Part shown: one piece after another, positions 1 through 61,147 of the stretch | How positions within the stretch are numbered: the stretch's first letter is position 1 | Layout: each line of letters begins with the position of its first letter | Origin: a virus | Taxonomy: Duplodnaviria; Caudoviricetes | DNA: 64,000 bases | Strand: one strand, 5' to 3' | IMG/VR virus record: IMGVR_UViG_3300025016_000004 | Program-made: the position numbers and the translations under genes | Notes under the pieces: generated by a model | Seen by the model: the letters and a program-made list of their open reading frames with translations, nothing else | Told to the model about the DNA's origin: nothing | Databases searched by the model: none

Positions 1-244
1 TATAAAATACAATATGGTTATCAGCACATTTAAGTTCTTTTCCATCACTTAATTTAAGATGATATATTTCGTATGGAATTGTTTCATGTAGTGCTTCTAT
101 ATCAACCCAACCGTTAGGTGTTTCAACTTCATATTCACTTACCTGAGTTGATTTGGTGATTTTCTTCAATGAATTAAATTCATCTTTATCAAATAATAAA
201 ACATTATTACTAACCCTTTTTTTTATTTCCTCAATTCTATCCAT
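1..244 (-). CDS. C-terminal half of a split intein (IntC), presumably fused to the ClpC C-extein; runs off the window edge; not in the ORF track
   Basis: Manual translation from ATG at 244: MDRIEEIKKRVSNNVLLFDKDEFNSLKKITKSTQVSEYEVETPNGWVDIEALHETIPYEIYHLKLSDGKELKCADNHIVFY. This is a Hint-domain segment with a block B-like CADNH and no block A. Linkage to ClpC is inferred because the C-extein lies outside the window. Confidence 0.8.
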   Translation of the reverse strand, partial: MDRIEEIKKRVSNNVLLFDKDEFNSLKKITKSTQVSEYEVETPNGWVDIEALHETIPYEIYHLKLSDGKELKCADNHIVFY

Positions 245-270
245 TTATTTTTATTTTTATGTTAATAACG

Positions 271-301
271 CAAATATATAATTTATTTTTAATTAAACAA
301 A
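271..301 (-). promoter_or_regulatory. Bacteroidota-type primary-sigma promoter upstream of the IntC ORF
   Basis: Minus strand TTTG (301-298), 19 nt, TATATTTG (278-271); matches the TTTG/TAnnTTTG consensus. Confidence 0.7.
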
Positions 302-342
302 ATTATTTATACTTATTCTTTTAATTTTATTTATTAATTGAG

Positions 343-681
343 TTATATTAATTTAAGCTTCTCTTTTAATTTATTAAATTCTTTTCTACCACTAATCAAT
401 CTACATATTTTAGGTTTTATTCTAATGGTATCACCCAAATCTTCTGTTTCTATATCCAAATCTAAAATTATGTTAAACAAATCACCTAAATAATCTTTAT
501 TTATATCAACCCAAGGGTATGGTAACCCATAATTTTTATGACCCCAACAAGATGCTTCAGTACCTATCCCATTATAATTTAAAATGACAACTAATTCTCG
601 AACACCCTCATCAATCCTCATACCCAACCCATCGGTTATGATTTTCGACTTATCATCAATTTTTTTATATCTTTCATCCAT
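343..681 (-). CDS. Hypothetical protein with a TYW3-like IDxxxxxLVxxLNxxGxxTxxSCxGH motif
   Basis: IDEGVRELVVILNYNGIGTEASCWGH; family resemblance by eye only. Confidence 0.5.
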   Translation of the reverse strand: MDERYKKIDDKSKIITDGLGMRIDEGVRELVVILNYNGIGTEASCWGHKNYGLPYPWVDINKDYLGDLFNIILDLDIETEDLGDTIRIKPKICRLISGRKEFNKLKEKLKLI

Positions 682-724
682 AATTAAAATTTTTTATATT
701 CACGTACATACAATAAAGATATCT

Positions 725-1897
725 TTATTTTTTTAAGAAGTTGACACATTTATTTATTACCTCTTCTTTATTATTTTTATAATCGTATTCACTAACATGT
801 AATACTTCATAACAGGATTCTAATATCATTTTATCTCTTTTTTCTTCTCTTAATGAATTTTCTGGTGTACTTCTATGGTAATATGTTCCATCAAACTCAA
901 TAATTCTTCCAGTCGTTTTATCAAAAAAGTCAGGTAATATTACACCGTTTAACAATGATAATCGATATTCATTATTTTTACCACTATCATCTTTAACACC
1001 TTTATCATATGTTGCGAAATAAATTTCATAATTTGGTGGAAATTCTTTGGTTTCCAATATTTCCCAAAATAATTTTTGTGAAACTTTACTAAAATTATTT
1101 CTTTTATAGTTAGTTAACCATTTAATTTGTCTATCGTTAAATCGTTTTAAACCAGCTTCTTCACCGTATTTTTGAATACAAATTTCTAAGCTAAACGTTG
1201 TTTGCCGTTCAATTACTTTAACTTTAGATTGTCTATAATTAAAACCCCTTTCAATCCAATATTCAATATTTGTTGGGGTTAGTCTTTTTTCAAAATTAAC
1301 ATGTTTAGCAGCATTTATTTGGTTTTTACTGACCATATCTTTAGCATCATTTTCAGAAAACCCTTTATTAACCCAAAAATCAATATTTGCTGGTGTTAAA
1401 CAAAGACGTTTTATTTCTTCTTCACTATAACCTTTATGAGCTAACCTTTTTTTAGATTTGCCATGGCGAATTTTAACACATTTAGATGATTTTTGTTGTT
1501 GTTTAGAAATTTCATTAATTGCTTCTTCTTTAGAATAACCTTTATTAACCCAATATTCTCCACATAAACGATTTCTTTGTTTAAGTTCAAGATTTCGTTT
1601 TTCTAATTCATTCAAAGCACTGTCTTTACCCCATCCACGTTCCAAAAAATACTTTAATTCACCCCATTTTTTTGTTTTAAAACCATAGTTTTTGACTAAC
1701 CACCCACGCATCAAAGAATATGAAATAATACCATCATCTTCTTTTAATTTAACCATAAGGTTTTCCATTTCCAATTTTATGCTCTCATTCTCAAAACGTA
1801 TATTTTTATCTAATTTTAAAACGTAATTTTTAAAAGTTTCAAAATCTGGAAAAACTTCATTTACTTCTTTAACTCCTTTACTTGTTTTTATCTTCAT
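725..1897 (-). CDS. Free-standing homing endonuclease, Vsr/DUF559-like PD-(D/E)xK C-terminal domain with repeated N-terminal motifs
   Basis: C-terminal PDFFDKTTGRIIEFDGTYYH...EKRD; repeats EYWVNKGYSKEEA, DFWVNKGFSENDA, EYWIERGF, YFLERGW; lies between the split-intein halves. Confidence 0.75.
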   Translation of the reverse strand: MKIKTSKGVKEVNEVFPDFETFKNYVLKLDKNIRFENESIKLEMENLMVKLKEDDGIISYSLMRGWLVKNYGFKTKKWGELKYFLERGWGKDSALNELEKRNLELKQRNRLCGEYWVNKGYSKEEAINEISKQQQKSSKCVKIRHGKSKKRLAHKGYSEEEIKRLCLTPANIDFWVNKGFSENDAKDMVSKNQINAAKHVNFEKRLTPTNIEYWIERGFNYRQSKVKVIERQTTFSLEICIQKYGEEAGLKRFNDRQIKWLTNYKRNNFSKVSQKLFWEILETKEFPPNYEIYFATYDKGVKDDSGKNNEYRLSLLNGVILPDFFDKTTGRIIEFDGTYYHRSTPENSLREEKRDKMILESCYEVLHVSEYDYKNNKEEVINKCVNFLKK

Positions 1898-1912
1898 GAT
1901 ATCTATTTTATA

Positions 1913-1920
1913 ATAAATAT
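1913..1920 (-). promoter_or_regulatory. ATATTTAT putative phage late-promoter motif (one example; recurs at 6520, 11258, 17557, 19767, 21674 on plus and 29020, 30980, 41612, 57703, 61989 on minus)
   Basis: Same 8-mer found shortly upstream (mostly 10-25 nt) of starts of structural genes and all five free-standing HE genes. Confidence 0.6.
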
Positions 1921-1957
1921 CATGAAGTTTTAAAAAGTTCGGATTAATTGGTGTTGG

Positions 1958-4858
1958 TTAATGTTTTATTTTATCCATCAATTGGTTTATATTCATTTTT
2001 TCAATTAAATTAGTTCTTTTATTCCTTACAACTATCTCAGTATCAGCGGTAAAACATTTACCTACACCAGTTGGGCCTAAGAAGATAAATGAACCAATTG
2101 GTTTTTGACCACTTCTAATACCTAACCTACTACGTCTAATTGCTTTAGAAATCTTTTTAACGGCTTCATCTTGCCCTATAATATCTTTTTTTAAATCATC
2201 TTCAAGGGTTTTAAGGCTATTACTTTCAGTGGTTGTTAATTTAGTCAATGGTATTCCAGTCATAGTTGAAATTACTGTTTCTACCATATCTGAAGTGATA
2301 ATTGTACGTTTTTTTTCGTTTTTTGCTTCCCAATTATACATCAATTCATCAACTTTAATCTCATATTCCTTACGTCTATCTCTTAACATTGCGGCATCCT
2401 CAAAATCTTGTTTATTGATGATTTCTTTCATCTTTTCTTTGAGTTTCTGGATTTCAAGTTTTAATTCCTTAATTTCAATTGGAAGTTTGATATCAATATT
2501 GGTTGATGCACCAACTTCATCTAATATATCAATAGCTTTATCAGGCATTGCTCTATCAGAAATATACCTATCGGCCAATTTAACCATTAATTCAATAATT
2601 TCATTATCATAACTAACATTGTGATAAGTTTCGTAATTTTCTTTTATGTTTTTTAGAATCGTAACAGTTTCAAGTAAACTAGGTTCGTTAATTAATACTT
2701 GTTGAAATCTTCTGGTTAATGCACCATCCGTTTCAATATTTTCTCTAAATTCATCTAATGTTGTGGCACCAATTACTTGGATTTCACCTCTAGCCAACGC
2801 TGGTTTGAATATATTTGATGCGTCTAATGAACCTGATGCGTTACCCGCACCTACAAGTGTATGTAATTCATCAATGAAAAGGATGATATCAGGATTATCT
2901 TTTAATTCAGTTAGAATAACTTTCATTCTTTCTTCGAATTGGCCTCGATATTTAGTTCCAGCAACGATTGAAGCTAGGTCTAGTGCGTAAATCTTTTTAC
3001 CTAATAAGGGTTTTGGCGCATCACCTGAGTTTATCAATAGGGCTAACCCTTCAACTATTGATGTGTTATGTGTTACAATATAATTATCTGTAATATATAA
3101 ATGATAATCATCTTCAACCATTATACATTTAGACTCCTTTCGTCCAATTAACTCTATTTTAACAATATTATTCTTAAGTGTTTTAGAATATTGATAATTA
3201 CTTGATACCTTTTCTTTTTTTCTCTTTAATAAAAATAAATTTTTTGGTGAATGGTATCTAATAGTTAAAATATATGACACTTGACCTAATTTTTTAACAC
3301 CTTTATATGTATAAGAAGTTTGTTTATCGCTTATTTTTGCTATACCACCAATAGACCAAATTAATTCTTGTATGTCTTTAATTAATTGGTAACTAGCACT
3401 TGAATATTGTAATGTACCACTATTGGTTACAGTCCCATAAGAATCCATTAAACCTTGTATGAGAGATATTTTTTGGGATAATGAACCGTTTTTATATTTT
3501 TCTGGGATAAATTTATTATTGGCTTTAGTTTCAGTTAAGTTCAATAAATCAGTCTCCCCCAATAATGGGTGTATTCTATCATTTTTATAATATCTAGTTC
3601 TATCTTCAATTAATTTATCTTCGGATAAATTAATTCTAAACGTATTTGTTTTTATCCCATCACCATTTATATTTAATTTATAATCTGACCCAATTAATTC
3701 CTCAACAGTTTCAGGTATTTCAATATCATCAGTGGTAAGTGAAAGTTCGTATTTACCAAAATGACCATCACCTAATAATAACCCCATTAAATAAGGGTCA
3801 ATAATATAATCTAAATCTTTACCCCTATTTATATTTTCAGACACCAAAGGTAATTTTAACCTATAATTAGTATTTTCAATTTTATTTTTAATATCAACTG
3901 TATTAAGAATAGACCAAGATTTTTTTCTTTCTTTACCTACTGGCATACCATAAACTTTCCATAAATGCTCACCACAAGCTTCAGTGCTTCTGCCATCTTT
4001 AAATGTCATTCTATAAATATCCTTTACGCCTTGTGGGTAAACCCCAATTATTTTAGTAGTTTTACCTTCTGGAGTTAACACAAAATCACCGACACTTATT
4101 TCACCCATAGTTGTCCAACCATTAGGTGTTAATATTTTAGCGTCAAGTGGTTGGGCTTTACCAACGCCAGGTTCGCCAATCAATACAGGGTTGTTCTTTT
4201 TACGTCTTGCTAAGATTGCTGTAACCCTTTTAATTTCATTTTCACGCCCAACTACAGGGTCTATTTTATTTTCAGTTGCATTTTTTGATATATCTATACA
4301 GAATCCATCCAATGCTGGCGTTTTAGACGAAGCTTCAATTGTTGGTCCTCTTCGTTTTTTAGGGTTTAAAGGAGAATTTTCAAAATCCTCATGTGGAATA
4401 TTTGCTTCATTGGTAGGTTCATTCATATCTGACATAAGTTTCGTTTTAAATATTTTATAATTTAGGTTAAGTTTTATTAACATTTTTTGTGCCATACATT
4501 TGGTTCTTAATAACGCTAACATAATATGTGCCTCATTAAGTACAGAATCTTTCATCCTATCACGTTCTCTTTGCATTTCTTCAACTATAAATTTAGTTTC
4601 AGGGCTAGGCAATATTTCATTACTTGATGAGTATGCTCGATTATTATTTATAATACTATTGGTTAAGTGGGTGCTTAACTCTTCGAACAATCCATCAACA
4701 TCAAAATGTAATTTACGAAGAACGGAAACAACCACATTATGGTCATGCAGAATGATAGACATAAGGATATGTTCGGGCCTAAATTTATTATCTTCATAAT
4801 CTTTAGCCTGATATATCGCTTGTTGCATCAACTCCTTGGCTGTTTTGGTCATCTCCAT
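1958..4858 (-). CDS. clpC: ClpC/ClpB-family AAA+ chaperone, N-terminal part: Clp-N, NBD1 with cis intein, UVR-like middle domain, start of NBD2, then IntN
   Basis: [75 protein letters not shown]. The ORF stops 32 aa after the second Walker A. Confidence 0.92.
1961..2056 (-). mobile_element. N-terminal half of a split intein (IntN, 32 aa)
   Basis: [32 protein letters not shown]-stop directly after GPTGVGK; block A with Cys1. Confidence 0.85.
3065..4156 (-). mobile_element. Class-3 (Ala1) intein with LAGLIDADG domain in the ClpC NBD1 Walker A, 364 aa
   Basis: GEPGVGK|[14 protein letters not shown]...CGEHLW...KCIMV...IVTHN|TSIVEG. The WCT triplet is present. LAGLIDADG motifs GLLLGDG and GLMDSYG. 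Confidence 0.9.
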
Positions 4859-11277: not shown

Positions 11278-13140
11278 ATGCTTACAGCTGGTGAAGTATT
11301 AGAGGAATATGGTAAATGCCTAATGGACCCTTGCTATGCGATTACCGAATTTTTAAAAACATTCGATAAAACGCAAGAAGGTTTTGTGCCTTTTAAATTA
11401 TTCCCAAAACAAGTTGAAATTGTTGAAGCTTATAGAAATCATAGGTTCACAATGGTTACTAAACCTAGACAGGCTGGCGTATCTACTACAACAGCGGCCT
11501 ATGCTTCAGTTATATCAGTTTTTGCTGACCCTAACAACCCTGAACATATATTAATCCTTGCCAACAAACAAGACATGGCCTTTGAATTCTTGGATAAAAT
11601 TAAAGACTTTATTGTTCAATTTCCAAGATGGGTGTGGGGCTCTGATTATTATGGTACACCTGAAAAGGAAAGTAAATCAATATTCTCGACAGAATCTAAA
11701 AAAGAACTTAAATTACCTAACGGTAGTAGGATTAAAGCTGTTGCTACATCTAAAAACGCATTAAGGGGCTTCACACCTACTTGGTTAATTATGGATGAAG
11801 CTGCCTTCATCGATAATGGTGCGGTAACCTATACAACAGCGTTAACAGCTTTAGGTACTGGTGGTCGTGTTTCTTTAGTTTCTACACCTAACGGTTACGA
11901 TGAATTATATCATAAAACATATGAACAAGCAAAAAGTGGTGATAATGATTACCATGTAGTTGAAATGAAATGGTATCAAGACCCACGATACACCACAAAT
12001 CAAAATTCAAAACTAAGAGATTTAGTTTGGATTAATGAAGAAGATGAGACTGATATAATAAAAGAAGTTAAGTACATAAATTTCGGTGATTCTGAAGAAA
12101 CCGTTGAAGGTGTTTATGGTCATTATGAAGATATGATTAGAAAGGGTTATAAACCTAGTTCAAGTTGGTACGTTAGTATGTGTAGGGGTATGAACAATAA
12201 TAAACGTATGATTGCTCAAGAGCTTGATGTATCGTTTATTGGTTCTGGTGGTAACGTTATTGACACCAAAGATATTCAAAGACAGGAAAAATTATTTGTT
12301 ACTGAACCTAATTGGATTGAAAACGATGAGTTTGGTGAGATTTGGTTATGGGAAAAACCAATTGCTGGTCATCAATATATTTTATCTGCCGATGTTGCTA
12401 GAGGTGATGGGGAAGATTATTCAACCATTATCATATTAGATTTCACTACAATGACTCAAGTCATGGAATTTAGAGCTAAATTACAATCTGATTTATTAGG
12501 TTATGTAGTTGATAAATGGGCTAGAATTTATGAAGCTTTGGTTGTGGTTGATATTACTGGTGGTATTGGAGTTGGAACTGTTAATAAATGTATGGAAATT
12601 GGTACACCTAATTTATATTATGGTGAAACAACTAACAAACCACTTGATAAGAAAACTAATAAGGTTAAATTTGAGAGTGATGAAGGTAAGTATCCAGGTT
12701 TTAACTGTTCGGCTGGGCTTAGAACGCCAGTAGTTGCTCGTTTTGAAATGATGATTAGAACTATGGGTGTTAAAGTTCGTTCTAGGAGATTAATTTCAGA
12801 AATGAATACATTCGTATTTAAAAACGGTAGAGCTGACCATCAAGATGGATTTCACGATGATTTAATTATGGCTATGGCTTATGCATTGTGGGTAGCTGAA
12901 TATTCATTTAAAAAATTAGCTGTAGCTAAAGAGAAAACTAAAGCAATGTTAAGCGCATGGTCAATAAATAACGCTGGTAATAGAGCACCTAGTGATGGTT
13001 ATATTAGTGACGCTTTCATTTCTAAGACAGATAGACAGAAAAAAGTAACAGCTAAACAGCCTAAATTCACACCACAGGTTGCAAAAAATATGCAAGACCC
13101 TACAGGTAAATACATGTGGTTATTTAGTGGTAGTAGATAA
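11278..13140 (+). CDS. terL: Terminase large subunit (T4 gp17-like)
   Basis: KPRQAGVSTT Walker A, LIMDEAAF Walker B, VSTPNG, nuclease ADVARGDGEDYS and HDDLIMA. Confidence 0.93.
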   Translation: MLTAGEVLEEYGKCLMDPCYAITEFLKTFDKTQEGFVPFKLFPKQVEIVEAYRNHRFTMVTKPRQAGVSTTTAAYASVISVFADPNNPEHILILANKQDMAFEFLDKIKDFIVQFPRWVWGSDYYGTPEKESKSIFSTESKKELKLPNGSRIKAVATSKNALRGFTPTWLIMDEAAFIDNGAVTYTTALTALGTGGRVSLVSTPNGYDELYHKTYEQAKSGDNDYHVVEMKWYQDPRYTTNQNSKLRDLVWINEEDETDIIKEVKYINFGDSEETVEGVYGHYEDMIRKGYKPSSSWYVSMCRGMNNNKRMIAQELDVSFIGSGGNVIDTKDIQRQEKLFVTEPNWIENDEFGEIWLWEKPIAGHQYILSADVARGDGEDYSTIIILDFTTMTQVMEFRAKLQSDLLGYVVDKWARIYEALVVVDITGGIGVGTVNKCMEIGTPNLYYGETTNKPLDKKTNKVKFESDEGKYPGFNCSAGLRTPVVARFEMMIRTMGVKVRSRRLISEMNTFVFKNGRADHQDGFHDDLIMAMAYALWVAEYSFKKLAVAKEKTKAMLSAWSINNAGNRAPSDGYISDAFISKTDRQKKVTAKQPKFTPQVAKNMQDPTGKYMWLFSGSR

Positions 13141-13199: not shown

Positions 13200-16100
13200 A
13201 TGACACAACAAAAGTTAACAGTATTTCAAAAACTAGGTAATGTTTTTGGTAAAGATGGGTTAAACCCACATGTTAAAAAAACCAACAAATATTCGTTAGG
13301 TAATAGTGAGTTACTTAAAACTCAAGATAAAGGTGAGTTTGAAGTTGCTAAATTACAAGCGCAACAAAATAAGTATTTACTTAATCAATGGCAAAAAGTT
13401 GATGGTGAATTATATCAACAAGCTATCCATTATGAAACAACAAGAATTGGTTCATATTCTGATTTTGAAACTATGGAATTCTATCCAGAAATTTCAGCTA
13501 CTTTAGATATTTTCATGGAAGAATCAACAACACCAAATGATAAGGGTGATGTAATCAATGTATATTCAGGTAGTAAACGTGTTAAAAGAATATTGGAAGA
13601 TTTATTAATCAATAGATTAGATATTCACACATCTTTACCTATGTGGACCAGAAACCTTCCCGTAAGAGAGGATAGTATAATTCCATTATTGGATGGAACT
13701 GAGGTAACTATTAAAGATTTATCCAAAATAATTAAAAATGGTGAAGAAGTTTGGTCTTATGCAATTCAAGATAATACCAAGGCGATTGTACCAAGTAAAA
13801 TTATTTGGTGTGACCTTACAAGAAAGAATAGTGAATTATTTAGAGTGACCTTTGATGATGGGACGCATATTGATACCACACCAGACCATGAGTATATGCT
13901 TAGGGACGGTTCATTCAAGAGAGCTGACCAGTTGAGTAAGGGGCAGTCGTTGATGCCGTTTTATACTAGAAAAAGTGAAAAGAAAAAAGATTGCATAGAT
14001 GGTTATGAAAAAGTTTATAACCCATCAACTGGTAAGTATAAATTTACACATTCTATGGTTTCACATCAGTGTGTCCGAGATTTGGATTATGAAAAATCTA
14101 TTGGGTGTCAATTTGATACTCACCACGTAGATTTTAATAAATTGAATAATGACCCACGTAATTTAAATAGAATGACGCATTCTGACCACTTTAAATTACA
14201 TGTTAAACATTTTGATAAAATATTAGGTTCACCAGAGGTTATTAAAAAAAGAATGGATGGGATTGATAAATACTTAAGGTCTGATGAGAGAAAAGAACGA
14301 CTTTCTTTAGAAATGAGTGGAATTTACCCAAAATATTTCGAAGAATATAATAATAGTGAGTTACATAGCGAACATAATTTAACCAATTGGAAATCTGGTG
14401 AGTTCATACAAAAAACTAAAAAAGGTATGACGATTGAACTAACAGATGGGTGTTTAAATTATATTTCTGATTTAATTATTAAATCAGATAAATTCATCCC
14501 TATTAGTAAATTATCCAAATTATTAAAAGGTGATGATAAATTTATAGAATTATTTAAAATAAATTATAGATTAAGAAAGGATATTACTAAATCAATTAAC
14601 AAAACCACTTTAAATAAAAATTTAATTAGAAAGATTGGTTTGAATTACTTTGACTATGTATCATCAATTAACCCAAGTTTAGTGTTAGATAAGGGTTACA
14701 TAAAAGCTAAATCAATTAGTTTAGGTAGAAAAAAAGAAAAGGTTTTACTAAATCATAAAGTGGTTTCTGTTGTTAAATTAACTGAAACTTCTGATGTATA
14801 TTGTTTAGAGGCAGTTGGTCCAAATGGTGAAAGTGATAGACATAATTTCCCAATTTGTAGTAAAGATTCTAATAATCAACATACTAGAGGTGGTGTATTT
14901 TTGTCCAACTGTAAATATGGGGATAATTTTGTTCATTTAAATATAGACCAAACTGCTGGTATCATAGGTGCTAGACAATTACCTAATTTTGAGATAGAGC
15001 GTAGAGAAAATGATATTCAAGGTATTATATCACAATCTCAGTTAGAGGGGGTTAATGCTGATGAAGGTAAAAATAAAACTAGATTCTTTTGGAAGGGTAG
15101 GGATATTACATTTAATTCTTGGCAAATAGCTCACTTTAGATTATTAGGTGATGATAGAAAATTACCTTATGGAACTTGTTTAAAAGGTGATACTAGAATT
15201 AATACCATCGATGGGGTTAAAGAAATTTCGGAAATTAAAAAAGGTGATATAGTTTATAGTTTTAACATTAAGACACAGTCTATAGAATCATCACCAGTTT
15301 TAGATACGATAAATTCTGGTAAAAAAGAATGTTTTAGAATTGGTAGTAGACACAATTTTGTTGATGCCTCTAAAGAACATAAAATATTAATATTAGAAAA
15401 TGATGAGTTTATTTATAAAAATGTGTTAGATTTAAAATTAGGTGATTTATTAGTAATTAATAAAAATGAAAAAACTAAAGAACTTATTAAAATAGATAAA
15501 AGTAAACCAAATGATAATAAAAATGGGTGGTCTAATGATATGGATTTATTTCCAGATTATGTAAATGAAGATTTTGCACAATTATTTGGCTTTTTAATTG
15601 GCGATGGATGGGTAAATCACACAGTAAATACGGTATCTTTTGTCTTAGGTGAGGATGAAGAAACAAATGAATATTACATAAATTTATTAAAAAAATTCAG
15701 TGGTGGTAATCCTAGAGTTGTAAATAATGGTAATCAAGTAGTTTTATCATCTAAATTATTATCAACAATTTTAGAAAGGATGGGATTCAAAGGAAAGTCA
15801 TACGAAAAAAGATTACCAAAATGGATTTACAATACAACCCCTGAAATACAAAAATCATTACTAGCTGGTTTAATGGATGCCGATGGTTGGTGGACTAAAG
15901 ATGAGTGGGTTGTTGGTTGTCATATTGAATTGAATAATGAACAATTAATTAAAGATTTAAAGATATTATTACAACGAATTGGTTATAAGTCTGGGTCAAT
16001 TAGAAGTAGGGTTAGAAAATCCCCAATTATTGAAGGTCGTGAAATTAAAAATGTTAGAGAAAGTTTTATGATAACATTTTTTGATTCATATTTAACCCAA

Positions 16101-17531
16101 ATGAAAAAATATGAAAATAGTAATAGGTTATTGGATAACTATATATTAGAGCCGATTACTATAATTGAAAGTATTGGTGAATTTGAGACATTCGATATTT
16201 ATGTGGAAAATGAAAATCATAATTTTTATGCTAATAATATTGTGGTTCATAATAGTTTCTTAGAAAAAGCAAGACGTATCTGGAAACAATTGATATTGGC
16301 TGAAGATGCTATGCTTGTTTATCGTGTAACTAGAGCACCAGAAAGACGTGTATATAAAATATTTGTTGGTAACATTGATAATGAGGATATTCCTGCTTAC
16401 GTAGATGAAATTGCAAATAGATTTAAACGTTCTCCACTTATTGACCCACAAACTGGTCAAATGGATTTAAGATACAATCAATTAGGTATTGACCAAGATA
16501 TTTTCGTTCCAACAAGAAGTGAAGATGCGGCCACACCAATTGATACCCTTCCAGGTGCGCAAAACTTAGACCAAATCGCTGATATTGAATACTTACAAAG
16601 AAAATTATTCACAGCGTTAAGAGTTCCAAAAACATTTTTAGGTTTTGAGGAACCAACAGGTGAGGGTAAAAACCTTGCATTGCAAGATATTAGATTCTCA
16701 AGAACTATAAACAGAATTCAACAAGCAATGCTTCACGAATTAAATAAAATTGCGATTATCCATTTATACTTAATGGGCTTCCATGATGATATAGATAATT
16801 TCACATTAACGCTTAATAACCCATCAACTCAAGCTGAAATGCTTAAGATTGAACATACTGCGGCTAAAGTAACTCTTTACAAAGATGCTGTAGCTGATGC
16901 TGGTAACGGTTTTGGTGCTATGTCAATGACTAGAGCTAAAAGAGAAATCTTAGGTTGGAGTGATGATGAAATTAAGCAAGATTTACTTGAACAAAGAATT
17001 GAAAAGGCTGCGGCTGCTGAATTAGAAAACACTGCTAATGTAATTAAAAATACTGGTGTATTTGATAGAGTAGATAGAGTTTATGGTGATATGGAAATGG
17101 CTAAAATCGGTGGTCAAGTTGATGAAGAAGGTAATGCTGCTGGTGAATCTGGTGGTAGTGCTGGAGGTGGTGGCGGCTTTGGTGGCGGCTTCGATGCTGG
17201 TGAATTAGATTTGGGTGATGAAGAAATTGATACTGAAGGTGAAGAAGGGTTAGGTGAAATTGGGGGTGAAGAAGGATTAGGTGGACCTGAAGCTGGACCT
17301 GAAGATACTACAACTGAAGAAGGTACAACTAAAAAAGGTAGATTAATCAATGAAACGGTTAATAAAAAACCTAAAGACATTTCTACTAAAAAGTACTTAG
17401 AACTGTTAAATGAAAGTGTTAGTGAAGATGATAAGAACAACAACGAAATCACTAAGATTTACGATAAATCCATCAAATTTAATGATGATTTAAATTCAAT
17501 GATTAATGAAATAGATTCGAAATTGGGATAA
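13200..17531 (+). CDS. gp20: Portal protein (T4 gp20-like) with two inteins; predicted spliced length 667 aa
   Basis: YSDFETMEFYPEISATLD, WTRNL/CKYGD, LPYGT/SFLEKARRIWKQLILAEDAMLVYRVTRAPERRVY, YLQRKLFTALRVP. Confidence 0.92.
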   Translation: MTQQKLTVFQKLGNVFGKDGLNPHVKKTNKYSLGNSELLKTQDKGEFEVAKLQAQQNKYLLNQWQKVDGELYQQAIHYETTRIGSYSDFETMEFYPEISATLDIFMEESTTPNDKGDVINVYSGSKRVKRILEDLLINRLDIHTSLPMWTRNLPVREDSIIPLLDGTEVTIKDLSKIIKNGEEVWSYAIQDNTKAIVPSKIIWCDLTRKNSELFRVTFDDGTHIDTTPDHEYMLRDGSFKRADQLSKGQSLMPFYTRKSEKKKDCIDGYEKVYNPSTGKYKFTHSMVSHQCVRDLDYEKSIGCQFDTHHVDFNKLNNDPRNLNRMTHSDHFKLHVKHFDKILGSPEVIKKRMDGIDKYLRSDERKERLSLEMSGIYPKYFEEYNNSELHSEHNLTNWKSGEFIQKTKKGMTIELTDGCLNYISDLIIKSDKFIPISKLSKLLKGDDKFIELFKINYRLRKDITKSINKTTLNKNLIRKIGLNYFDYVSSINPSLVLDKGYIKAKSISLGRKKEKVLLNHKVVSVVKLTETSDVYCLEAVGPNGESDRHNFPICSKDSNNQHTRGGVFLSNCKYGDNFVHLNIDQTAGIIGARQLPNFEIERRENDIQGIISQSQLEGVNADEGKNKTRFFWKGRDITFNSWQIAHFRLLGDDRKLPYGTCLKGDTRINTIDGVKEISEIKKGDIVYSFNIKTQSIESSPVLDTINSGKKECFRIGSRHNFVDASKEHKILILENDEFIYKNVLDLKLGDLLVINKNEKTKELIKIDKSKPNDNKNGWSNDMDLFPDYVNEDFAQLFGFLIGDGWVNHTVNTVSFVLGEDEETNEYYINLLKKFSGGNPRVVNNGNQVVLSSKLLSTILERMGFKGKSYEKRLPKWIYNTTPEIQKSLLAGLMDADGWWTKDEWVVGCHIELNNEQLIKDLKILLQRIGYKSGSIRSRVRKSPIIEGREIKNVRESFMITFFDSYLTQMKKYENSNRLLDNYILEPITIIESIGEFETFDIYVENENHNFYANNIVVHNSFLEKARRIWKQLILAEDAMLVYRVTRAPERRVYKIFVGNIDNEDIPAYVDEIANRFKRSPLIDPQTGQMDLRYNQLGIDQDIFVPTRSEDAATPIDTLPGAQNLDQIADIEYLQRKLFTALRVPKTFLGFEEPTGEGKNLALQDIRFSRTINRIQQAMLHELNKIAIIHLYLMGFHDDIDNFTLTLNNPSTQAEMLKIEHTAAKVTLYKDAVADAGNGFGAMSMTRAKREILGWSDDEIKQDLLEQRIEKAAAAELENTANVIKNTGVFDRVDRVYGDMEMAKIGGQVDEEGNAAGESGGSAGGGGGFGGGFDAGELDLGDEEIDTEGEEGLGEIGGEEGLGGPEAGPEDTTTEEGTTKKGRLINETVNKKPKDISTKKYLELLNESVSEDDKNNNEITKIYDKSIKFNDDLNSMINEIDSKLG
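13659..14909 (+). mobile_element. Portal intein 1: Pro1, HNH-containing, 417 aa
   Basis: WTRNL|PVREDSIIPLLDG...TTPDH...HHVDFNKLNNDPRNL...DVYCLEA...GVFLSN|CKYGD. Confidence 0.85.
15177..16253 (+). mobile_element. Portal intein 2: canonical Cys1 LAGLIDADG intein, 359 aa
   Basis: PYGT|CLKGDTRI...FGFLIGDG...LAGLMDADG...IVVHN|SFLE. Confidence 0.92.
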
Positions 17532-19754: not shown

Positions 19755-19790
19755 ATGTTTATTAGCATATTTATTGAGAAAGAGTATAAT

Positions 19791-21605
19791 ATGTCAGATG
19801 AATATAAAATAATTAGAGGGGGTAAAACTGGTACGGGTTTACTTATAGAGGGTGACGCTGGTTTTATCGAACCTAATGATTTAAGAAATAGACCATTCAT
19901 TAATGAGGTTAGTAAGATAGGTAGTACTAGTCAAATTATGATTGAACCCCTTATATTATTTGTTGTATTACAAAAATATGGAGTTGAGAATAGAAACGGT
20001 AGAATTTACCCAGAACACATATTAAAGAGAGAAGCTAAAAACTACGAAGAGCTTATCAGAAATAGATTGGCCATTGGCGAATGCGTTCCAAAGGGTACTG
20101 AAATTTTCACGGAAAATGGTTGGGTAGAAATTCAAGATATGAATGTTGGTGATAATATATTCACTTTAAATGTCGAAAATAATCAATTGGAGATACAACC
20201 AGTTATTAGAACTACCAATAAGAAATATGAGGATGATATGATTCATATATATAATTCATCATCATTGGATATGTTAGTAACTAAAAAACATAAAATAGTT
20301 TTATGGGATAGAAATGATAAACCATACATATTAACCGCTGAAGAATTATATGATAAAATAAATAAAAATGATTCTAGAATATCACATTCATATATTAGAA
20401 ATTCTGGTGAATGGGTTGGTGATGATGTTACACATATTAACATACCTAACTCTAATTATTCAATTGATGCAGAATTATGGGCGAAATTTTTAGGTATATT
20501 CCTAGCCGATGGTCATTGTTCTGGAACTAGAGGTGGTCAAATAAAAAATGCTGTTATTATTACTCAAGTAAAAGATAAATCATCTTTAAAGGTTATTGAA
20601 ATGTTAGATGAATTACCTTTTGAATATTCAATTAGTGATGATAGACAATATATAATTTATGATGAAGCATTACATAAATTTTTATTTGAATTAGGTAATT
20701 CAGAGGAAAAATTTATACCTAACTACGCTAAAAATTGGAATGTTGGGTTATTAAACACTCTATTAGATTGGATGCTTTTGGGTGATGGTAGGAATAGAAC
20801 TGACAGAAATGGTAACTTGATGAAAGAATATTATACGATTTCAGATAAACTTTCGGAAGATGTTTTTGAGGTTATGCTCAAAATATCAAATGGTGCGACA
20901 TTTAACAAACGAATTCAAGAAGATAGGTATATTACCGACACTAAATTTATTACTGAAGAAGTTGAAGTTGATGGGATGTTAGAGTTAATTAAAAGGGAAG
21001 TTAAAGTTAAAAGATTAATTAAAGCTATTAATTCAAAACCTTTACATATAATATCAGAAAGACGTGCTAAAGGTATCACGTTAGATACTAGATTTACTAA
21101 AGCTGAAAAAGTACCGTTTAATGATAATGTTTATTGTGTTACAGTTAACAATGGAACTTGGTTAATGAGATATAATGGGAAAATTTCTTGGACACATAAT
21201 AGTGACCACCCAGAATCATCAGTAATTTCAAACAGTAGAGTTTCACACGAAATCAAAAAAATTTGGTGGGAAGGTCATACGCTTGTTGGTGAAATAGAAA
21301 TCATTATGTCACCTGGTTTTATCAATCAAGGAATCATTTCTTGTGAAGGTGACCAAATAGCTAATATGCTAAGAAAAGGAATTCGTGTTGGTGTATCTTC
21401 AAGAGGTGTTGGTTCACTAGAAGAAGTTGCTGGTAAATTATTGGTGCAAGATGATTTTGAATTAATTTGTTGGGATATTGTGACTAGTCCTAGTACTCCA
21501 GGCTCATATATGTTTAACAAAAGGTCTGACGCTCAGCCATTTATGGAAGGTGAAGAAAAGGGAAAAGACCTATTAATAGATAAATTAAATAAATTTTTAC
21601 TATAA
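19791..21605 (+). CDS. gp21: Prohead core protease (T4 gp21-like) with intein
   Basis: NRNGRIYP, AIGE/SDHP, GVSSRGVGS, DFELICWDIVTSPSTPG. Start placed at ATG 19791, after ATATTTAT (19767-19774). Confidence 0.9.
   Translation: MSDEYKIIRGGKTGTGLLIEGDAGFIEPNDLRNRPFINEVSKIGSTSQIMIEPLILFVVLQKYGVENRNGRIYPEHILKREAKNYEELIRNRLAIGECVPKGTEIFTENGWVEIQDMNVGDNIFTLNVENNQLEIQPVIRTTNKKYEDDMIHIYNSSSLDMLVTKKHKIVLWDRNDKPYILTAEELYDKINKNDSRISHSYIRNSGEWVGDDVTHINIPNSNYSIDAELWAKFLGIFLADGHCSGTRGGQIKNAVIITQVKDKSSLKVIEMLDELPFEYSISDDRQYIIYDEALHKFLFELGNSEEKFIPNYAKNWNVGLLNTLLDWMLLGDGRNRTDRNGNLMKEYYTISDKLSEDVFEVMLKISNGATFNKRIQEDRYITDTKFITEEVEVDGMLELIKREVKVKRLIKAINSKPLHIISERRAKGITLDTRFTKAEKVPFNDNVYCVTVNNGTWLMRYNGKISWTHNSDHPESSVISNSRVSHEIKKIWWEGHTLVGEIEIIMSPGFINQGIISCEGDQIANMLRKGIRVGVSSRGVGSLEEVAGKLLVQDDFELICWDIVTSPSTPGSYMFNKRSDAQPFMEGEEKGKDLLIDKLNKFLL
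20082..21200 (+). mobile_element. LAGLIDADG intein in prohead protease, 373 aa
   Basis: AIGE|CVPKGTEIFTENGW...GIFLADG...MLLGDG...VYCVTV...WTHN|SDHP. Confidence 0.92.
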
Positions 21606-38006: not shown

Positions 38007-39812
38007 TTATTTATCAGTGTCTGGTTTTTTATAATTCCTAACCATTTTAGTTATTAATGGATTTCTAACGATATCATTTTCATCAAATTCAAAGAACCCA
38101 ATTTCATCGATATTTCTATGTCTATTCATGGCATCATATAACCCCGTTTTAGTGGCATCATCATATCTATCAGATTGGTCCATATCTCCAGAAACAATAT
38201 ATTTTGAACCGTACCCGATTCTAGTTAAAAGACTTTTCATTTGAGATGGTGACATATTTTGAGCTTCCTCACCGATTAAGATTGAATTATCTAAGGTTTT
38301 ACCTCTAATAAAACCCAAAGGTTCAACCATTAATTCTTTAGAATCTTCTAATTTCCTTCTAGCATCTTCACCTATAATTTTATCAACAATGTCGATTGAT
38401 GCAGCTAAATATGGCTCTAGTTTTTCTTTTAGATTTCCAGGTAAGAATCCTAAGTTCTCTTCAGCTTCAACGGCTGGTTTAACTATTAAAATTTTATTGA
38501 ATGAATTATCTGGGTCTTGAAGTAGTTCTAAAGCTACTGCGATAGCTACGAAAGAATTATGTGTAACTATGAAGTTATCTGTAATATATAAAGAATCTTT
38601 ACTATCAATTGAGATACATTTAGCTTCTGATTGACCTATAGGTTCTATGTCAGTGATATAACGTTTTGGTATATATTTAGTTTTAGGTTTAACTAATTGT
38701 GCTTTTCTTTTTAATTTAAATGGATTAACCTCTGGTGGTAGTGATATAGTTAAGGTGTATGCTTTTTTACATAAAATTTTTTCACCATTATTATCAATAT
38801 ATGAACCTATTTTATCGTTTAACTTAAAAACACCCCCTAAACTATTAACGATAAAACAAACTCCATCAATTAAATCTTTAGATGTGTTAGTGAAAAATGT
38901 GGAAGTACCATTCTTATTTACATAACCATCGGTATCCATTAACCCTCTTAATACTTCTAATCTAACTTTTTTAGTATTAAAAAGGTATTTATCTGGTATT
39001 TTTTTATTTATTGTTGCAATATTTTTTAAGTTTAATTCATTTAAATTATTTAAAATTTCATTATTATTATTTTCACCAATAATTGAGTATTGATACTTAC
39101 CACTTTTTTTATTTATTGTGTGATAATCATTTAATCTTTCGGAAATAAGTTCTACGATTTCAGTATCTTGAGTTGTAAATGTAATTCTATTTTGCGTTAA
39201 ACCACCATCACCTAATAAACATCCTAGAACATAGGGGTCAATAAATAATTCCTTTTCTTCAAATTCAATTGATTTAACTAATGGGATTGTGTGATTTTTA
39301 TCACCTCTACTGGTATTTAAGGTTTCCATTATTTCACTCAAAGGTTTTACATGACCCTTTCTGGGTGAGTAAAATCTTTTACCACCTTTTTTTACTCTAT
39401 AATTTCTATCGTAATATGTGTCAGTTAACCATAAATGCTCATCACAACAATCTGTATAAGAACTATCATTAAAATATACCCTATAAATTTCTTTAATACC
39501 TTGAGGGTGAATTTGAATAACTTTTGTTGGTTTACCTTCAGGGGTTAAAACTTCATCACCAACTCGTATCTCACCCATAGTAGTCCAACCGTTAGGTGTA
39601 AGTATTTTAGAATACAATGGTTGTGCTTTCCCTACGCCAGCAGGCCCAGAACAAAGAACAATTTCTTTCTCTTTAATTAAATTTACAAAATCTTTTTGTT
39701 TAGTGTTTTTGCACTTTAATCTTACCTTGAGTGGTAAGATTTTATTTACAGACCTTTCCTTTGTGGTTGGTTGTGTTGGTGTACTTGTTGTACTTCTTTT
39801 ACCTTTTGCCAT
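38007..39812 (-). CDS. phoH: PhoH-family ATPase with intein
   Basis: SGPAGVGK/SF, KPAVEAEENLGFLPG, PLGFIRGKTL, EEAQN, SGDMDQSD, IVRNPLI. Confidence 0.93.
   Translation of the reverse strand: MAKGKRSTTSTPTQPTTKERSVNKILPLKVRLKCKNTKQKDFVNLIKEKEIVLCSGPAGVGKAQPLYSKILTPNGWTTMGEIRVGDEVLTPEGKPTKVIQIHPQGIKEIYRVYFNDSSYTDCCDEHLWLTDTYYDRNYRVKKGGKRFYSPRKGHVKPLSEIMETLNTSRGDKNHTIPLVKSIEFEEKELFIDPYVLGCLLGDGGLTQNRITFTTQDTEIVELISERLNDYHTINKKSGKYQYSIIGENNNNEILNNLNELNLKNIATINKKIPDKYLFNTKKVRLEVLRGLMDTDGYVNKNGTSTFFTNTSKDLIDGVCFIVNSLGGVFKLNDKIGSYIDNNGEKILCKKAYTLTISLPPEVNPFKLKRKAQLVKPKTKYIPKRYITDIEPIGQSEAKCISIDSKDSLYITDNFIVTHNSFVAIAVALELLQDPDNSFNKILIVKPAVEAEENLGFLPGNLKEKLEPYLAASIDIVDKIIGEDARRKLEDSKELMVEPLGFIRGKTLDNSILIGEEAQNMSPSQMKSLLTRIGYGSKYIVSGDMDQSDRYDDATKTGLYDAMNRHRNIDEIGFFEFDENDIVRNPLITKMVRNYKKPDTDK
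38556..39626 (-). mobile_element. Class-3 (Ala1) LAGLIDADG intein in the PhoH Walker A, 357 aa
   Basis: GPAGVGK|[14 protein letters not shown]...CDEHLW...AKCISI...IVTHN|SFVA; WCT triplet; GCLLGDG and GLMDTDG. Confidence 0.9.
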
Positions 39813-58807: not shown

Positions 58808-61147
58808 CTACTTTTCAGTGCCAAAAACAAGTTTTTTGTAATATTTAGCACGATTTTCTGTAACTTTATCCATTGAGTAGGTTTCAGCCACAGTATTATA
58901 TAAATTATCCCCAAGTATTTTTATCATCTCAGGGTTTTGTATCAATTTTTTAAGGTATTGATACCATTGTTTATGATTCCTATGAGAATCAACCAATAAA
59001 CCATTTTTAGTTAAATCAATTTCACCACCTTTTTGAAATGCATTTTGAATATCAATTGTATAAGGACCATAATTTTGAGCGATTAACGCCTTTTTATGGA
59101 AACCGCTTTCAATTACCTTTAATTGACTTTTAACTTTATTGAAGGTATGTTCAGTCAACGGTGCTAATGAAATATCAAATAAATTATAATTGGTCGCATA
59201 ATTGGTGATTGGTTTTGTCCAAACTCTTCTGTACGGCTCTTGCATAATGCTAGGGAATTCTTCAGTCACATATCTCAATAAATGCTCTTTATATTCTTTT
59301 GAAATTGTCGTATAATCATTGGTGAATATTTTTTCATATTCACACCAAACTGTTTCGTGTGGTAATATATCTCTTTGAGTTTGTTCACCTGTATCTTTGT
59401 TAATTGAATTAACCTTACCTCTAGTATCAAACCCACATAACACAAATTGTATTTTATCTAATAACCCGTCACCTTTTAATTTAGAAACTAATTGATTTAA
59501 TAATTTTAAATCTGCTAAATGACTATTCCCAATCCAAAATGCTTTACCATTTCGTCTAATATATATTATATGATTTTGAACTTCAACGCAATAAACATTT
59601 CCTTTATAATATTTTTTATATTGGTCATCTGTTTTAATTAAAGGGGTATTTTTATTATGTTTACTAACACTAGGGTGTTTTGTAAAATTAACAACTAATG
59701 AATCAAATTGGTTAGTGATTTTACGGCCTTTAATCATAGACGTTCTTTTACCTCGATTAGTAATGGTGGCTGAAATACCTAATTTTAATGCCATTTCTTG
59801 TAAATCATTGGCTAACGCTGATGAAGAGGTAAAAGCTCTAGTTCTACCATATTTGTTATTTTCAATATGACCATCACCATTAATAAACCATTCTAAAAAT
59901 ATCTTTAATTGCCTAGATGACAAATTTAATATTTCTTTAGGTATAAATTTTTCTGTAGCGGTACCAAAATCAGATAAATAATTCCATAATTGTTTATCAA
60001 AGACTCTCAATTGTTTTTTATCTTTAGTGTATTTTGGGTTAAATCCCATTTTAGTTAACAAATTAAACATATGCTCCAAATAATGATTATCTTTAGATTG
60101 AGCAATACCTACTTGATGTAAACCCTTACTTTTACTAGTCCAACCTTCAGCCATCCAAAAGCCGAAAAACTCTAACCAATCATTCATTTCTATCATAGTA
60201 TCAGTCCCATATTTTTCATATAAATCAACCCCATACTTATTTTTTTTATGTCCTTTTATAAAATTTTCATTATAAGCTTCTTCAAATTCGAACTTTAATT
60301 CAGTATAACTAGCTAAATTAGGTAATATAAAATATTCTACCTCATTACCAATCCAATTAGCATTTTTTCTAACATGAAAATTTTTACCATATATTTTTTC
60401 TGATTGTACTAACCCTAAATTCAATTTTTTATGAGTTAAATTCTTAGCTTCTGATGCGTACATATTATGGTTTGGTGTAACTTCATACTCAATTAACCCA
60501 TTTTTAGCACAATTTAATTCACCATCGAATGGTTCACATATATACCCACTTGGTTTATGATATTCCAAATAATTAGTTTCTGGGTTTAATGTTACTACTT
60601 TTTCAGTCTTATCTAACTCATCAAATCGTTTCCAACCACCATCAGTTAAAATTTCGGTATCTGGAGTCATACAACTCCCACCTAACCAACCAATTCTGAT
60701 TTTATCAGAAGGTTCTGGGTTTGAAGTGTATTGTTTTTCTGTTGGGTCAATAGCATTTGGTAAGACTACAACATTCTTGTTATGTTTTTTAATTTCATTT
60801 GCAAAAATTTCTGTTGTTGTTATAATATTCTCAGCAATTTTTAAATTATTAAGGATTTTTTTATCCAAATCATTATTTTTTATAATATGATATGCTGGGT
60901 GAGTCATATCTGGTAACCAATAATCATCTAAATCCATAACTGTAGGGATTCCTAATGATTTTAATTTTTCTAATAATCCTTCCATTTGGTCATAATTACC
61001 CAAAGCTCTATGATAATGAATTAGGTCGTATTGTTTTAACCAATCGTCATCATGTAATTTTGGCTCATATTCAATATCCACATGAAATTCATCTGGATAT
61101 AATTTTTCTAAATGTAAGTTTGGCTTGGTTGAACGAAAATAGCTCAA
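58808..61147 (-). CDS. GT4-like glycosyltransferase with intein; N-terminal strand lies in another frame (61144-61188)
   Basis: MDLDDYW, LPNAID, IGWLGGS/SH, DISLAPL, FNKVKSQLKVIE. Confidence 0.85.
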   Translation of the reverse strand: MSYFRSTKPNLHLEKLYPDEFHVDIEYEPKLHDDDWLKQYDLIHYHRALGNYDQMEGLLEKLKSLGIPTVMDLDDYWLPDMTHPAYHIIKNNDLDKKILNNLKIAENIITTTEIFANEIKKHNKNVVVLPNAIDPTEKQYTSNPEPSDKIRIGWLGGSCMTPDTEILTDGGWKRFDELDKTEKVVTLNPETNYLEYHKPSGYICEPFDGELNCAKNGLIEYEVTPNHNMYASEAKNLTHKKLNLGLVQSEKIYGKNFHVRKNANWIGNEVEYFILPNLASYTELKFEFEEAYNENFIKGHKKNKYGVDLYEKYGTDTMIEMNDWLEFFGFWMAEGWTSKSKGLHQVGIAQSKDNHYLEHMFNLLTKMGFNPKYTKDKKQLRVFDKQLWNYLSDFGTATEKFIPKEILNLSSRQLKIFLEWFINGDGHIENNKYGRTRAFTSSSALANDLQEMALKLGISATITNRGKRTSMIKGRKITNQFDSLVVNFTKHPSVSKHNKNTPLIKTDDQYKKYYKGNVYCVEVQNHIIYIRRNGKAFWIGNSHLADLKLLNQLVSKLKGDGLLDKIQFVLCGFDTRGKVNSINKDTGEQTQRDILPHETVWCEYEKIFTNDYTTISKEYKEHLLRYVTEEFPSIMQEPYRRVWTKPITNYATNYNLFDISLAPLTEHTFNKVKSQLKVIESGFHKKALIAQNYGPYTIDIQNAFQKGGEIDLTKNGLLVDSHRNHKQWYQYLKKLIQNPEMIKILGDNLYNTVAETYSMDKVTENRAKYYKKLVFGTEK
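59525..60673 (-). mobile_element. LAGLIDADG intein in the glycosyltransferase, 383 aa, penultimate Gly
   Basis: WLGGS|CMTPDTEILTDGGW...VTPNH...GFWMAEG...FINGDG...VYCVEV...WIGN|SHLAD. Confidence 0.9.

Follow-up and report, generated by a model that had tools for sequence, protein, structure and literature searches.

Fractured genes carrying split inteins, as described by Dassa et al. 2009 (PMC2677866), are of phage origin and follow one order on one strand: the N-terminal half of the gene with the N-terminal intein fragment (IntN), a short spacer, an endonuclease gene, and the C-terminal intein fragment (IntC) with the C-terminal half. Their endonucleases belong to the Vsr-like family, a hairpin lies just upstream of the endonuclease start codon, and derivatives lacking the homing endonuclease occur. 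All these features recur at a locus in the first 4,858 nucleotides (nt) of a viral DNA stretch of 64,000 nt (IMG/VR record IMGVR_UViG_3300025016_000004; the whole stretch is referred to here as the window), in which a ClpC-like gene is split at the Walker A motif of its second nucleotide-binding domain (NBD2). The locus differs from the described cases in its host, a Clp/Hsp100 chaperone ATPase instead of an enzyme of DNA synthesis or repair, in the atypical position of the split, between intein blocks A and B, and in the presence of extra passenger genes between the endonuclease gene and IntC (in the window and in the related contigs L003 and L005). These data indicated that the element is of a known kind, a class-1 split intein with an atypical split in a fractured gene of the type reported by Dassa et al. 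(PMC2677866), since every testable defining feature of these three kinds was found. The Clp/Hsp100 chaperone host, the extra passenger genes in the gap and the existence of relatives with ClpC in three pieces are new. We reasoned that the two ClpC pieces are very probably rejoined by protein trans-splicing.

Clp is not mentioned by Dassa et al. (PMC2677866), and a literature search for inteins in Clp ATPases, including ClpC and ClpB, found no description of a Clp/Hsp100 intein, just ClpP of Chlamydomonas, with subscription papers incompletely covered. An earlier sequence-only reading of the window, made without database searches, had considered a Clp host unusual, which holds for the searchable literature but not for metagenomes, where the arrangement is common: in large protein collections, IntC is fused to a Clp C-terminal half in 916 protein clusters. 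Among characterized inteins, AceL-TerL, GOS-TerL, Cat (PDB 6DSL) and VidaL (PDB 6VGV) share with the locus a short IntN, a long IntC containing block B, and insertion after the Walker A Lys. They differ from the element described here in that its extein is ClpC, its nucleophiles are Cys1 and Thr+1, its IntC carries an extra head of about 25 residues, and its splicing is predicted. IntN measures 25 amino acids (aa) in AceL-TerL, 37 in GOS-TerL and 16 in VidaL, as compared to 32 here. The gp41-1 intein, unlike the one at this locus, is of the canonically split type, its IntN being long and its IntC short. It is otherwise the best solved match of IntC (PDB 6QAZ), sharing the block B pattern C-S/A-x-x-H, an end in T/S-H-N and a phage P-loop helicase as host.

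All features of the locus lie on the minus strand. The upstream open reading frame (ORF; 1958-4858) encodes 966 aa that comprise, in order, Clp_N, NBD1 with a contiguous intein, the middle region, NBD2 up to the Walker A sequence GPTGVGK, IntN and a stop codon, as read from Pfam matches and from collinearity with the viral contigs L007 and L009. IntN, with 32 aa, occupies 1961-2056, and its stop codon (TAA, 1960-1958) lies 1,713 nt away from where the IntC-ClpC ORF begins (ATG at 244), the two being separate ORFs. The latter has 405 codons, of which the window contains the first 81 (2-244), reaching from the IntC head through the first strands to block B (KCADNH), with the remainder past the edge. 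Two metagenomic contigs, L001 (94.7 kb) and L002 (83.5 kb), were retrieved by exact match to the protein of the 112-aa passenger ORF and show 100% identity with the window throughout the 2.1 kb that were compared; they were used to read past the edge. The sequence-only reading had predicted that the ORF starting at 244 would end its intein part in HN, followed by T, S or C and ClpC NBD2 sequence. In both contigs SHN is indeed followed by Thr, within TFLSK, and then by AAA_2 and ClpB_D2-small (L001:10438-11655; protein P0001, 405 aa), which excludes a non-Clp extein or a stop after IntC.

In the N-terminal piece, Pfam identified Clp_N, AAA and AAA_lid_9, along with LAGLIDADG_3 in the NBD1 intein, such that the two pieces together provide the complete class I build of Clp/Hsp100 proteins (Clp_N, two AAA+ modules and the D2-small domain). 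The uninterrupted relative on L007 scored below the equivalog cut-offs of both ClpB (856 versus 1232) and ClpA (783 versus 993), and a UVR motif match fell narrowly below its cut-off. "ClpC-like" is the safe name here. The closest ClpC relatives, encoded on L007 and L009 and 83-85% identical, read GPTGVGK-T without a gap across the junction, and both of their Walker A motifs are free of inserted residues. Thus, the 32 and 146 residues of the intein fragments constitute an insertion placed exactly between the Lys and the Thr of the P-loop.

The N-terminal piece passes from GPTGVGK into C-F-T-A-D-T-E-I, which forms block A with Cys1 and DTEI, continues through the next strand and helix, and ends in MDKIKH before the stop. 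IntC consists of the first 146 residues of P0001, ends in N-G-I-L-S-H-N and is followed by TFLSKVLAAHVFG, the extein starting with T-F-L-S-K-V-L-A-A-H-V-F-G. When the IntC members were compared to Pfam, 10 of 10 matched Intein_splicing (PF14890), the window copy with 36.1 bits against a cut-off of 35.8 (E-value, 7e-9). A profile built from ten C-terminal fragments retrieved gp41-1 (6QAZ, 1.7e-8), CatC (6DSL_B, 3.3e-8) and VidaL (6VGV, 1.5e-7) from the PDB; the IntC end Y-Y-T-N-G-I-L-S-H-N was aligned to the terminal block of solved inteins, and the invariant block B, L-K-C-A-D-N-H-I-V-F (residues 71-80 of P0001), to that of gp41-1, CatC and VidaL. Cys1 is invariant in all ten IntN fragments aligned. 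Indeed, Cys1, C-A-D-N-H of block B, the terminal S-H-N and a Thr or Ser at +1 are retained throughout relatives that are just 52-77% identical.

The presence of block B in the C-terminal piece, with only block A and the next strand in the N-terminal piece, makes the split atypical. Furthermore, IntC residue 33 is where the CatC alignment opens, which puts the split at the point used in the Cat/VidaL family, and IntN has 28-36 aa in all nine split relatives. The IntC head of about 25 residues (MDRIEEIKKRV...) is missing in L013 and in the NBD1 copy of L006. These comparisons support the assignment of the element as a class-1, atypically split intein composed of a 32-aa IntN and a 146-aa IntC, whose splicing is predicted, and the fractured Clp gene proposed in the sequence-only reading, split at the NBD2 Walker A motif by such an intein, was confirmed in its anatomy. 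The same reading had placed a Vsr-like endonuclease gene and a 112-aa ORF between the halves, and both were recovered (390 aa, best structure match 3R3P with Z 10.7; and 681-343).

The endonuclease ORF (725-1897) is free-standing and encodes 390 aa, with helical repeats in the N-terminal part and a nuclease domain at about residues 265-390. Its structure was modelled from a 28-sequence alignment with a mean predicted local distance difference test score (pLDDT) of 77. Foldseek alone gave weak E-values on this model, which contains several domains, and the structure matches came from a second aligner. In these, the C-terminal domain (residues 265-390) matched the catalytic domain of I-Bth0305I (3R3P) with Z 10.7 and a root mean square deviation of 2.5 Å over 93 of 97 residues, followed by the DUF559 protein 3HRL (Z 9.9) and Vsr (1CW0, Z 9.5; 1VSR, Z 9.1). 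No relevant entry was found in the PDB by sequence, either with the single protein or with a 7-sequence profile, and no match in PHROGs. Asp323, Glu334 and His341 are invariant in the 28 sequences, the last Asp of the motif being ambiguous as two subtypes of the domain align poorly. On the strength of the model, the protein has an EDxHD/Vsr-like fold and is a predicted nuclease. The N-terminal region contains three to four W-V-N-K-G-Y/F-S repeats and is presumably DNA-binding. Homologues number 417, and nearly all of them are annotated as hypothetical.

I-Bth0305I is the prototype of EDxHD homing endonucleases (PMC3239194), a type first recognized in fractured genes (PMC2677866). The enzyme encoded here resembles it in its C-terminal nuclease domain, its two-part build with a presumably DNA-binding N-terminal region and its conserved Asp, Glu and His, but I-Bth0305I is encoded by an intron in recA (PMC3239194) whereas the gene at this locus is free-standing inside a split intein, and the similarity between the two is too low for HMMER. 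Among the related loci, the endonuclease has a mosaic build: near-identity across loci extends over residues 1 to ~260 and the 5' hairpin spacer (window 728-1897 versus L003:4141-5358), and the nuclease domain occurs in a short subtype in the window and L006 and in one about 20 residues longer in L003, L004, L005, L008 and L011.

The 60-nt spacer between IntN and the endonuclease gene contains an RNA hairpin (1885-1936) with a 16-bp inner stem, whose 3' arm holds the endonuclease start codon (1897-1895). Its folding energy is -18.8 kcal/mol (z -7.8), and none of 200 shuffled sequences was as stable. The hairpin is kept in L003, L004, L005 and L008, and all three substitutions retain pairing as G-U, which points to a structure formed at the RNA level. 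Of 16 endonuclease 5' regions, 15 were reported to contain hairpins, which were tied to translational attenuation (Dassa et al. 2009, PMC2677866). By analogy, translation of the endonuclease at this locus would be held down by the hairpin burying its AUG.

Pairwise ratios of nonsynonymous to synonymous divergence (dN/dS) were 0.08-0.33 for IntC versus 0.11-0.40 for the ClpC exteins, and as judged from these estimates the intein fragments are under purifying selection. The ClpC halves and the intein fragments are all full-length and free of frameshifts. In L012 the split is kept with intact motifs even though no endonuclease gene is present and 42 nt separate stop from start, and in L013 it is kept alongside a decayed endonuclease gene. 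Prediction of the IntN-IntC complex gave an ipSAE of 0.83, as compared to 0.00 for the best of three controls; the mark applied was passed by 58 of 80 solved complexes and by 2 of 110 mismatched pairs. At least 70% of contacts were shared between the docking runs, with a partner pLDDT of at least 69, and the predicted interface places the IntN strands on IntC residues 33-41, block B and blocks F and G.

We propose that a mobile cassette has fractured the gene of a phage two-ring Clp/Hsp100 ATPase in the Walker A loop of NBD2. This cassette comprises, in order, the 32-aa IntN, a putatively hairpin-controlled Vsr-like (EDxHD-type) endonuclease gene, the 112-aa passenger and the 146-aa IntC. The two ClpC pieces would be made as separate polypeptides, and the short IntN strand pair would dock on IntC to complete the Hint fold. 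Class-1 protein trans-splicing could then be carried out by Cys1, the His of block B, the His-Asn at the IntC end and the Thr at +1, which would join GPTGVGK to TFLSK... and thereby restore the P-loop of an ATPase of about 829 aa once the NBD1 intein is also out. The endonuclease would be the selfish driver, presumably cutting intein-less clpC alleles in co-infection so that the cassette is copied in.

Several observations weigh against this proposal. Block F has an Arg where gp41-1 and VidaL have a His, Cat being likewise without the His, and a +1 Thr is usually a slower nucleophile than Cys or Ser. Since related complexes (Cat and VidaL) are already solved, the docking result signifies likeness, not independent proof, and may reflect memory. 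In direct sequence comparisons, the endonuclease scored below threshold for both DUF559 (17.4 bits versus a cut-off of 20.6) and MTES_1575 (18.2 versus 38.2). Finally, there were no RNA runs among the listed sequencing runs that contain the locus sequence.

Non-covalent assembly accounts for part of the evidence. The intein fragments could be splicing-dead and act as a tight clamp holding two ClpC pieces together, like the interaction domains in some endonuclease-fractured phage genes. There is precedent in a fragmented NrdA that is reported to assemble via interaction domains (PMC3045599), and in SbcD-like and thyA-like splits that lack inteins (PMC2677866; L093 in this work); the predicted docking fits a clamp equally well. 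Nevertheless, a clamp would not require the invariant Cys1, block B His, His-Asn and +1 Thr or Ser among relatives 52-77% identical, and the NBD2 P-loop would, if never ligated, carry 32 and 146 foreign residues between the Lys and the Thr of GKT. We therefore regard the clamp as improbable. The break falls within the Walker A GKT, where non-covalent assembly would leave the P-loop disrupted; on this ground and that of the invariant catalytic residues, real splicing is the reading to be preferred.

It is less probable still that invasion by the endonuclease killed clpC and left its pieces as remnants in decay. Many phages can in principle do without ClpC, and the endonuclease gene has decayed in L013, yet the near-neutral dN/dS values or regular inactivating mutations to be expected in the split lineages were not seen: the halves and the intein fragments remain intact and under purifying selection, contigs from many samples carry the identical sequence, and the arrangement has been retained in the 916 protein clusters. 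That the 1.7-kb insert is an intron of group I or II in which the endonuclease ORF is housed, its intein-like ends being coincidental, is scarcely credible, for although EDxHD endonucleases also reside in group I introns (I-Bth0305I in recA), the locus (L001:8400-11000) matched no Rfam family at E-values up to 1 in a search that introns with large ORF inserts can escape, both ends are recognizable Hint-domain halves with catalytic residues, and the 42-nt spacer of L012 is too short for an intron.

At least eight diverged viral contigs have the same split at the same site. In the comparison of L003 and L005 with L008, amino acid identity was 87% for IntN, 84-85% for IntC and 83-91% for the endonuclease, the synonymous divergence (dS) of the latter being 0.13-0.33, as compared to just 51-54% identity and a dS of 1.3-2.6 for the ClpC exteins. 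The cassette is far more alike than its host exteins, which indicates that it moved as a unit between distant clpC genes. The nearest extein relatives of the window copy lack the cassette, and this fits a recent gain, which precise loss may also explain.

On L006 (2743-6480; IMGVR_UViG_3300042888_002852), ClpC is in three pieces separated by two homologous, atypically split inteins. The split at the NBD1 Walker A motif has an IntN of 33 aa and a spacer of ~57 nt with no endonuclease, and the split at the NBD2 Walker A motif has an endonuclease. The two IntC fragments are 60% identical and the two IntN fragments only 38%, a pattern to be expected from selection for orthogonal pairing. Middle pieces of this kind (IntC, the middle of ClpC and IntN; 514 aa) form protein clusters of their own (P0279).

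Further variation was observed around the IntC start. Other small genes gather in the gap between the endonuclease gene and IntC, of 72 and 136 aa in L003 (5378-6008) and of 66 and 70 aa in L005 (5463-5868). In several metagenomic proteins (P0158, P0182, P0207, P0223 and P0259), an ORF lying upstream continues in frame into IntC, adding 100-250 N-terminal residues, and in L004 (5821-6510) a TTA codon stands at the usual IntC start and the ORF opens 60 codons upstream.

A profile search of 1.84 billion representatives yielded 1775 relatives of IntC, 142 of them at 1e-30 or better, and in most relatives the match begins in the first 17 residues, as expected of proteins split in the same atypical way. 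After HN / [S/T], most exteins are terminase large subunits with the same split point; others, identified by eye from the first 22 residues, are ClpC NBD2, ClpC NBD1 and ClpX-like, DnaB-like, ABC, clamp-loader-like and SbcC/Rad50-like ATPases (P0278-P0427). In the contiguous forms for which upstream sequence was printed, mostly terminases, the intein always follows G-K of Walker A. From these sequences, the intein family looks like a Walker A specialist.

The relatives also bear on two details of the sequence-only reading. The resemblance between the IntN end (MDKI) and the IntC start (MDRI) had been taken as a possible relic of the insertion, and the IntN tails and IntC heads of relatives do not support this. 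The tail D-K/R-I-K-H/Y recurs in the IntN sub-type of the window (L006 and P0279), and the contiguous terminase relative P0285 has a similar tail, K-N-K-H, as native intein sequence. The head M-x-R-I-E-E is absent from L008, L011, L012, L013 and the NBD1 copy of L006, and the L003-type loci have the head with a different tail and show no echo. Since K-x-K-H is native at the split point in contiguous forms, no echo relic is needed. The second detail is a promoter of its own for the C-terminal half. The promoter-like motif, TTTG-N19-TATATTTG, is present at 301-271 (minus strand), ending 27 nt before the IntC ATG, but such motifs are not enriched in the window (5 found versus 3.2 expected). No space for a promoter exists at the IntC start of L003, which the upstream ORF overlaps. 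As judged from these sequences, the position of the motif is suggestive and the promoter claim is weak.

The passenger ORF (343-681, 112 aa), located 98 nt upstream of the IntC-ClpC ORF, belongs to a conserved phage family with 34 homologues at 49-72% identity. It had no match in Pfam or PHROGs and fell only into unnamed clusters of the protein atlas. Its structure was modelled with a pLDDT of 90 and resembles the TYW3 fold (Z 8.0-8.9), a likeness that is structural only, as neither Pfam nor a sequence profile against the PDB lends it support. In a fractured NrdA, homologues at 68-72% identity separate the two halves, and their neighbours are a GIY-YIG endonuclease and a canonical split intein with a 33-aa IntC. 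Others lie, alone or with just a 45-aa ORF, between the halves of thymidylate synthase with no intein; the thyA break falls just before the active-site P-P-C-H and leaves extra tails of 20 and 33 residues, and Rfam identified no intron at these thyA-split loci. In a related phage (L091), a homologue is positioned just upstream of an intact thyA. The loci compared are L089:4259-6485, L093:3168-4814, L100:9-1556 and L091:4001-5904. Elsewhere, homologues are found near RNA ligase and kinase genes. We tentatively consider that the passenger, instead of being inert cargo, may belong to a new family of small elements that invade genes, or may assist endonuclease cassettes as an accessory factor, although this is rather unlikely on present evidence. 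If true, a small TYW3-like protein would itself enter and fracture conserved genes.

A second intein is contained in the N-terminal ClpC piece. This contiguous, 364-aa element with a LAGLIDADG domain (3065-4156) interrupts the Walker A motif of NBD1 (GEPGVGK / A...THN / T) and has class-3 signatures, namely Ala1, an H-L-W block B, a block F Cys and a T-H-N / T end. Among solved inteins, it matches that of Mycobacterium smegmatis DnaB best (6BS8, 3.8e-10). Neither L007 nor L009 has the element, and L010 has it at 69% identity. Composite PHROG matches were obtained for other large ORFs of the window (13200-17531 and 19755-21605 on the plus strand; 38007-39812 and 58808-61147 on the minus strand), combining portal with HNH endonuclease, head protease with a "PhoH-like" family, and PhoH with "terminase" families. 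These matches suggest further inteins, and the phage appears to be intein-rich. About 6 kb past the window edge, L001 encodes a 589-aa Hom_end_hint protein.

Elsewhere in the window, PHROG families for terminase, portal and head protease were matched, which indicated that its DNA is that of a phage; a megablast search of the window against phage records gave no match. The runs that contain the locus sequence are groundwater or aquifer DNA metagenomes dated 2017, which may themselves be the samples of origin. Just past the left edge of the window, L001 carries a 126-aa ORF with a Cas12f1-like/TnpB zinc-ribbon domain (11657-12037, minus strand), tail-to-tail directly after the C-terminal half of ClpC, and another 2 kb beyond it a homologue of IF3 (170 aa).

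The pieces of the locus are labelled "hypothetical protein" throughout public data. Atypically split inteins are sought after in protein chemistry since their short IntN can be made synthetically, and a large candidate pool with Cys1/Thr+1 chemistry and native GK / T junctions is offered by the locus together with hundreds of relatives found in nature and the broader Walker A family. The relatives with ClpC in three pieces would represent natural tandem trans-splicing, the aim of engineered three-segment protein labelling. Taken together, the loci provide a series (an empty site, an intein only at the other site, a split with a nuclease, a split with a decayed nuclease and a split without a nuclease) that illustrates the proposed life cycle of such elements, and they extend the hosts of inteins and fractured genes from enzymes of DNA metabolism to a protein-unfolding chaperone.

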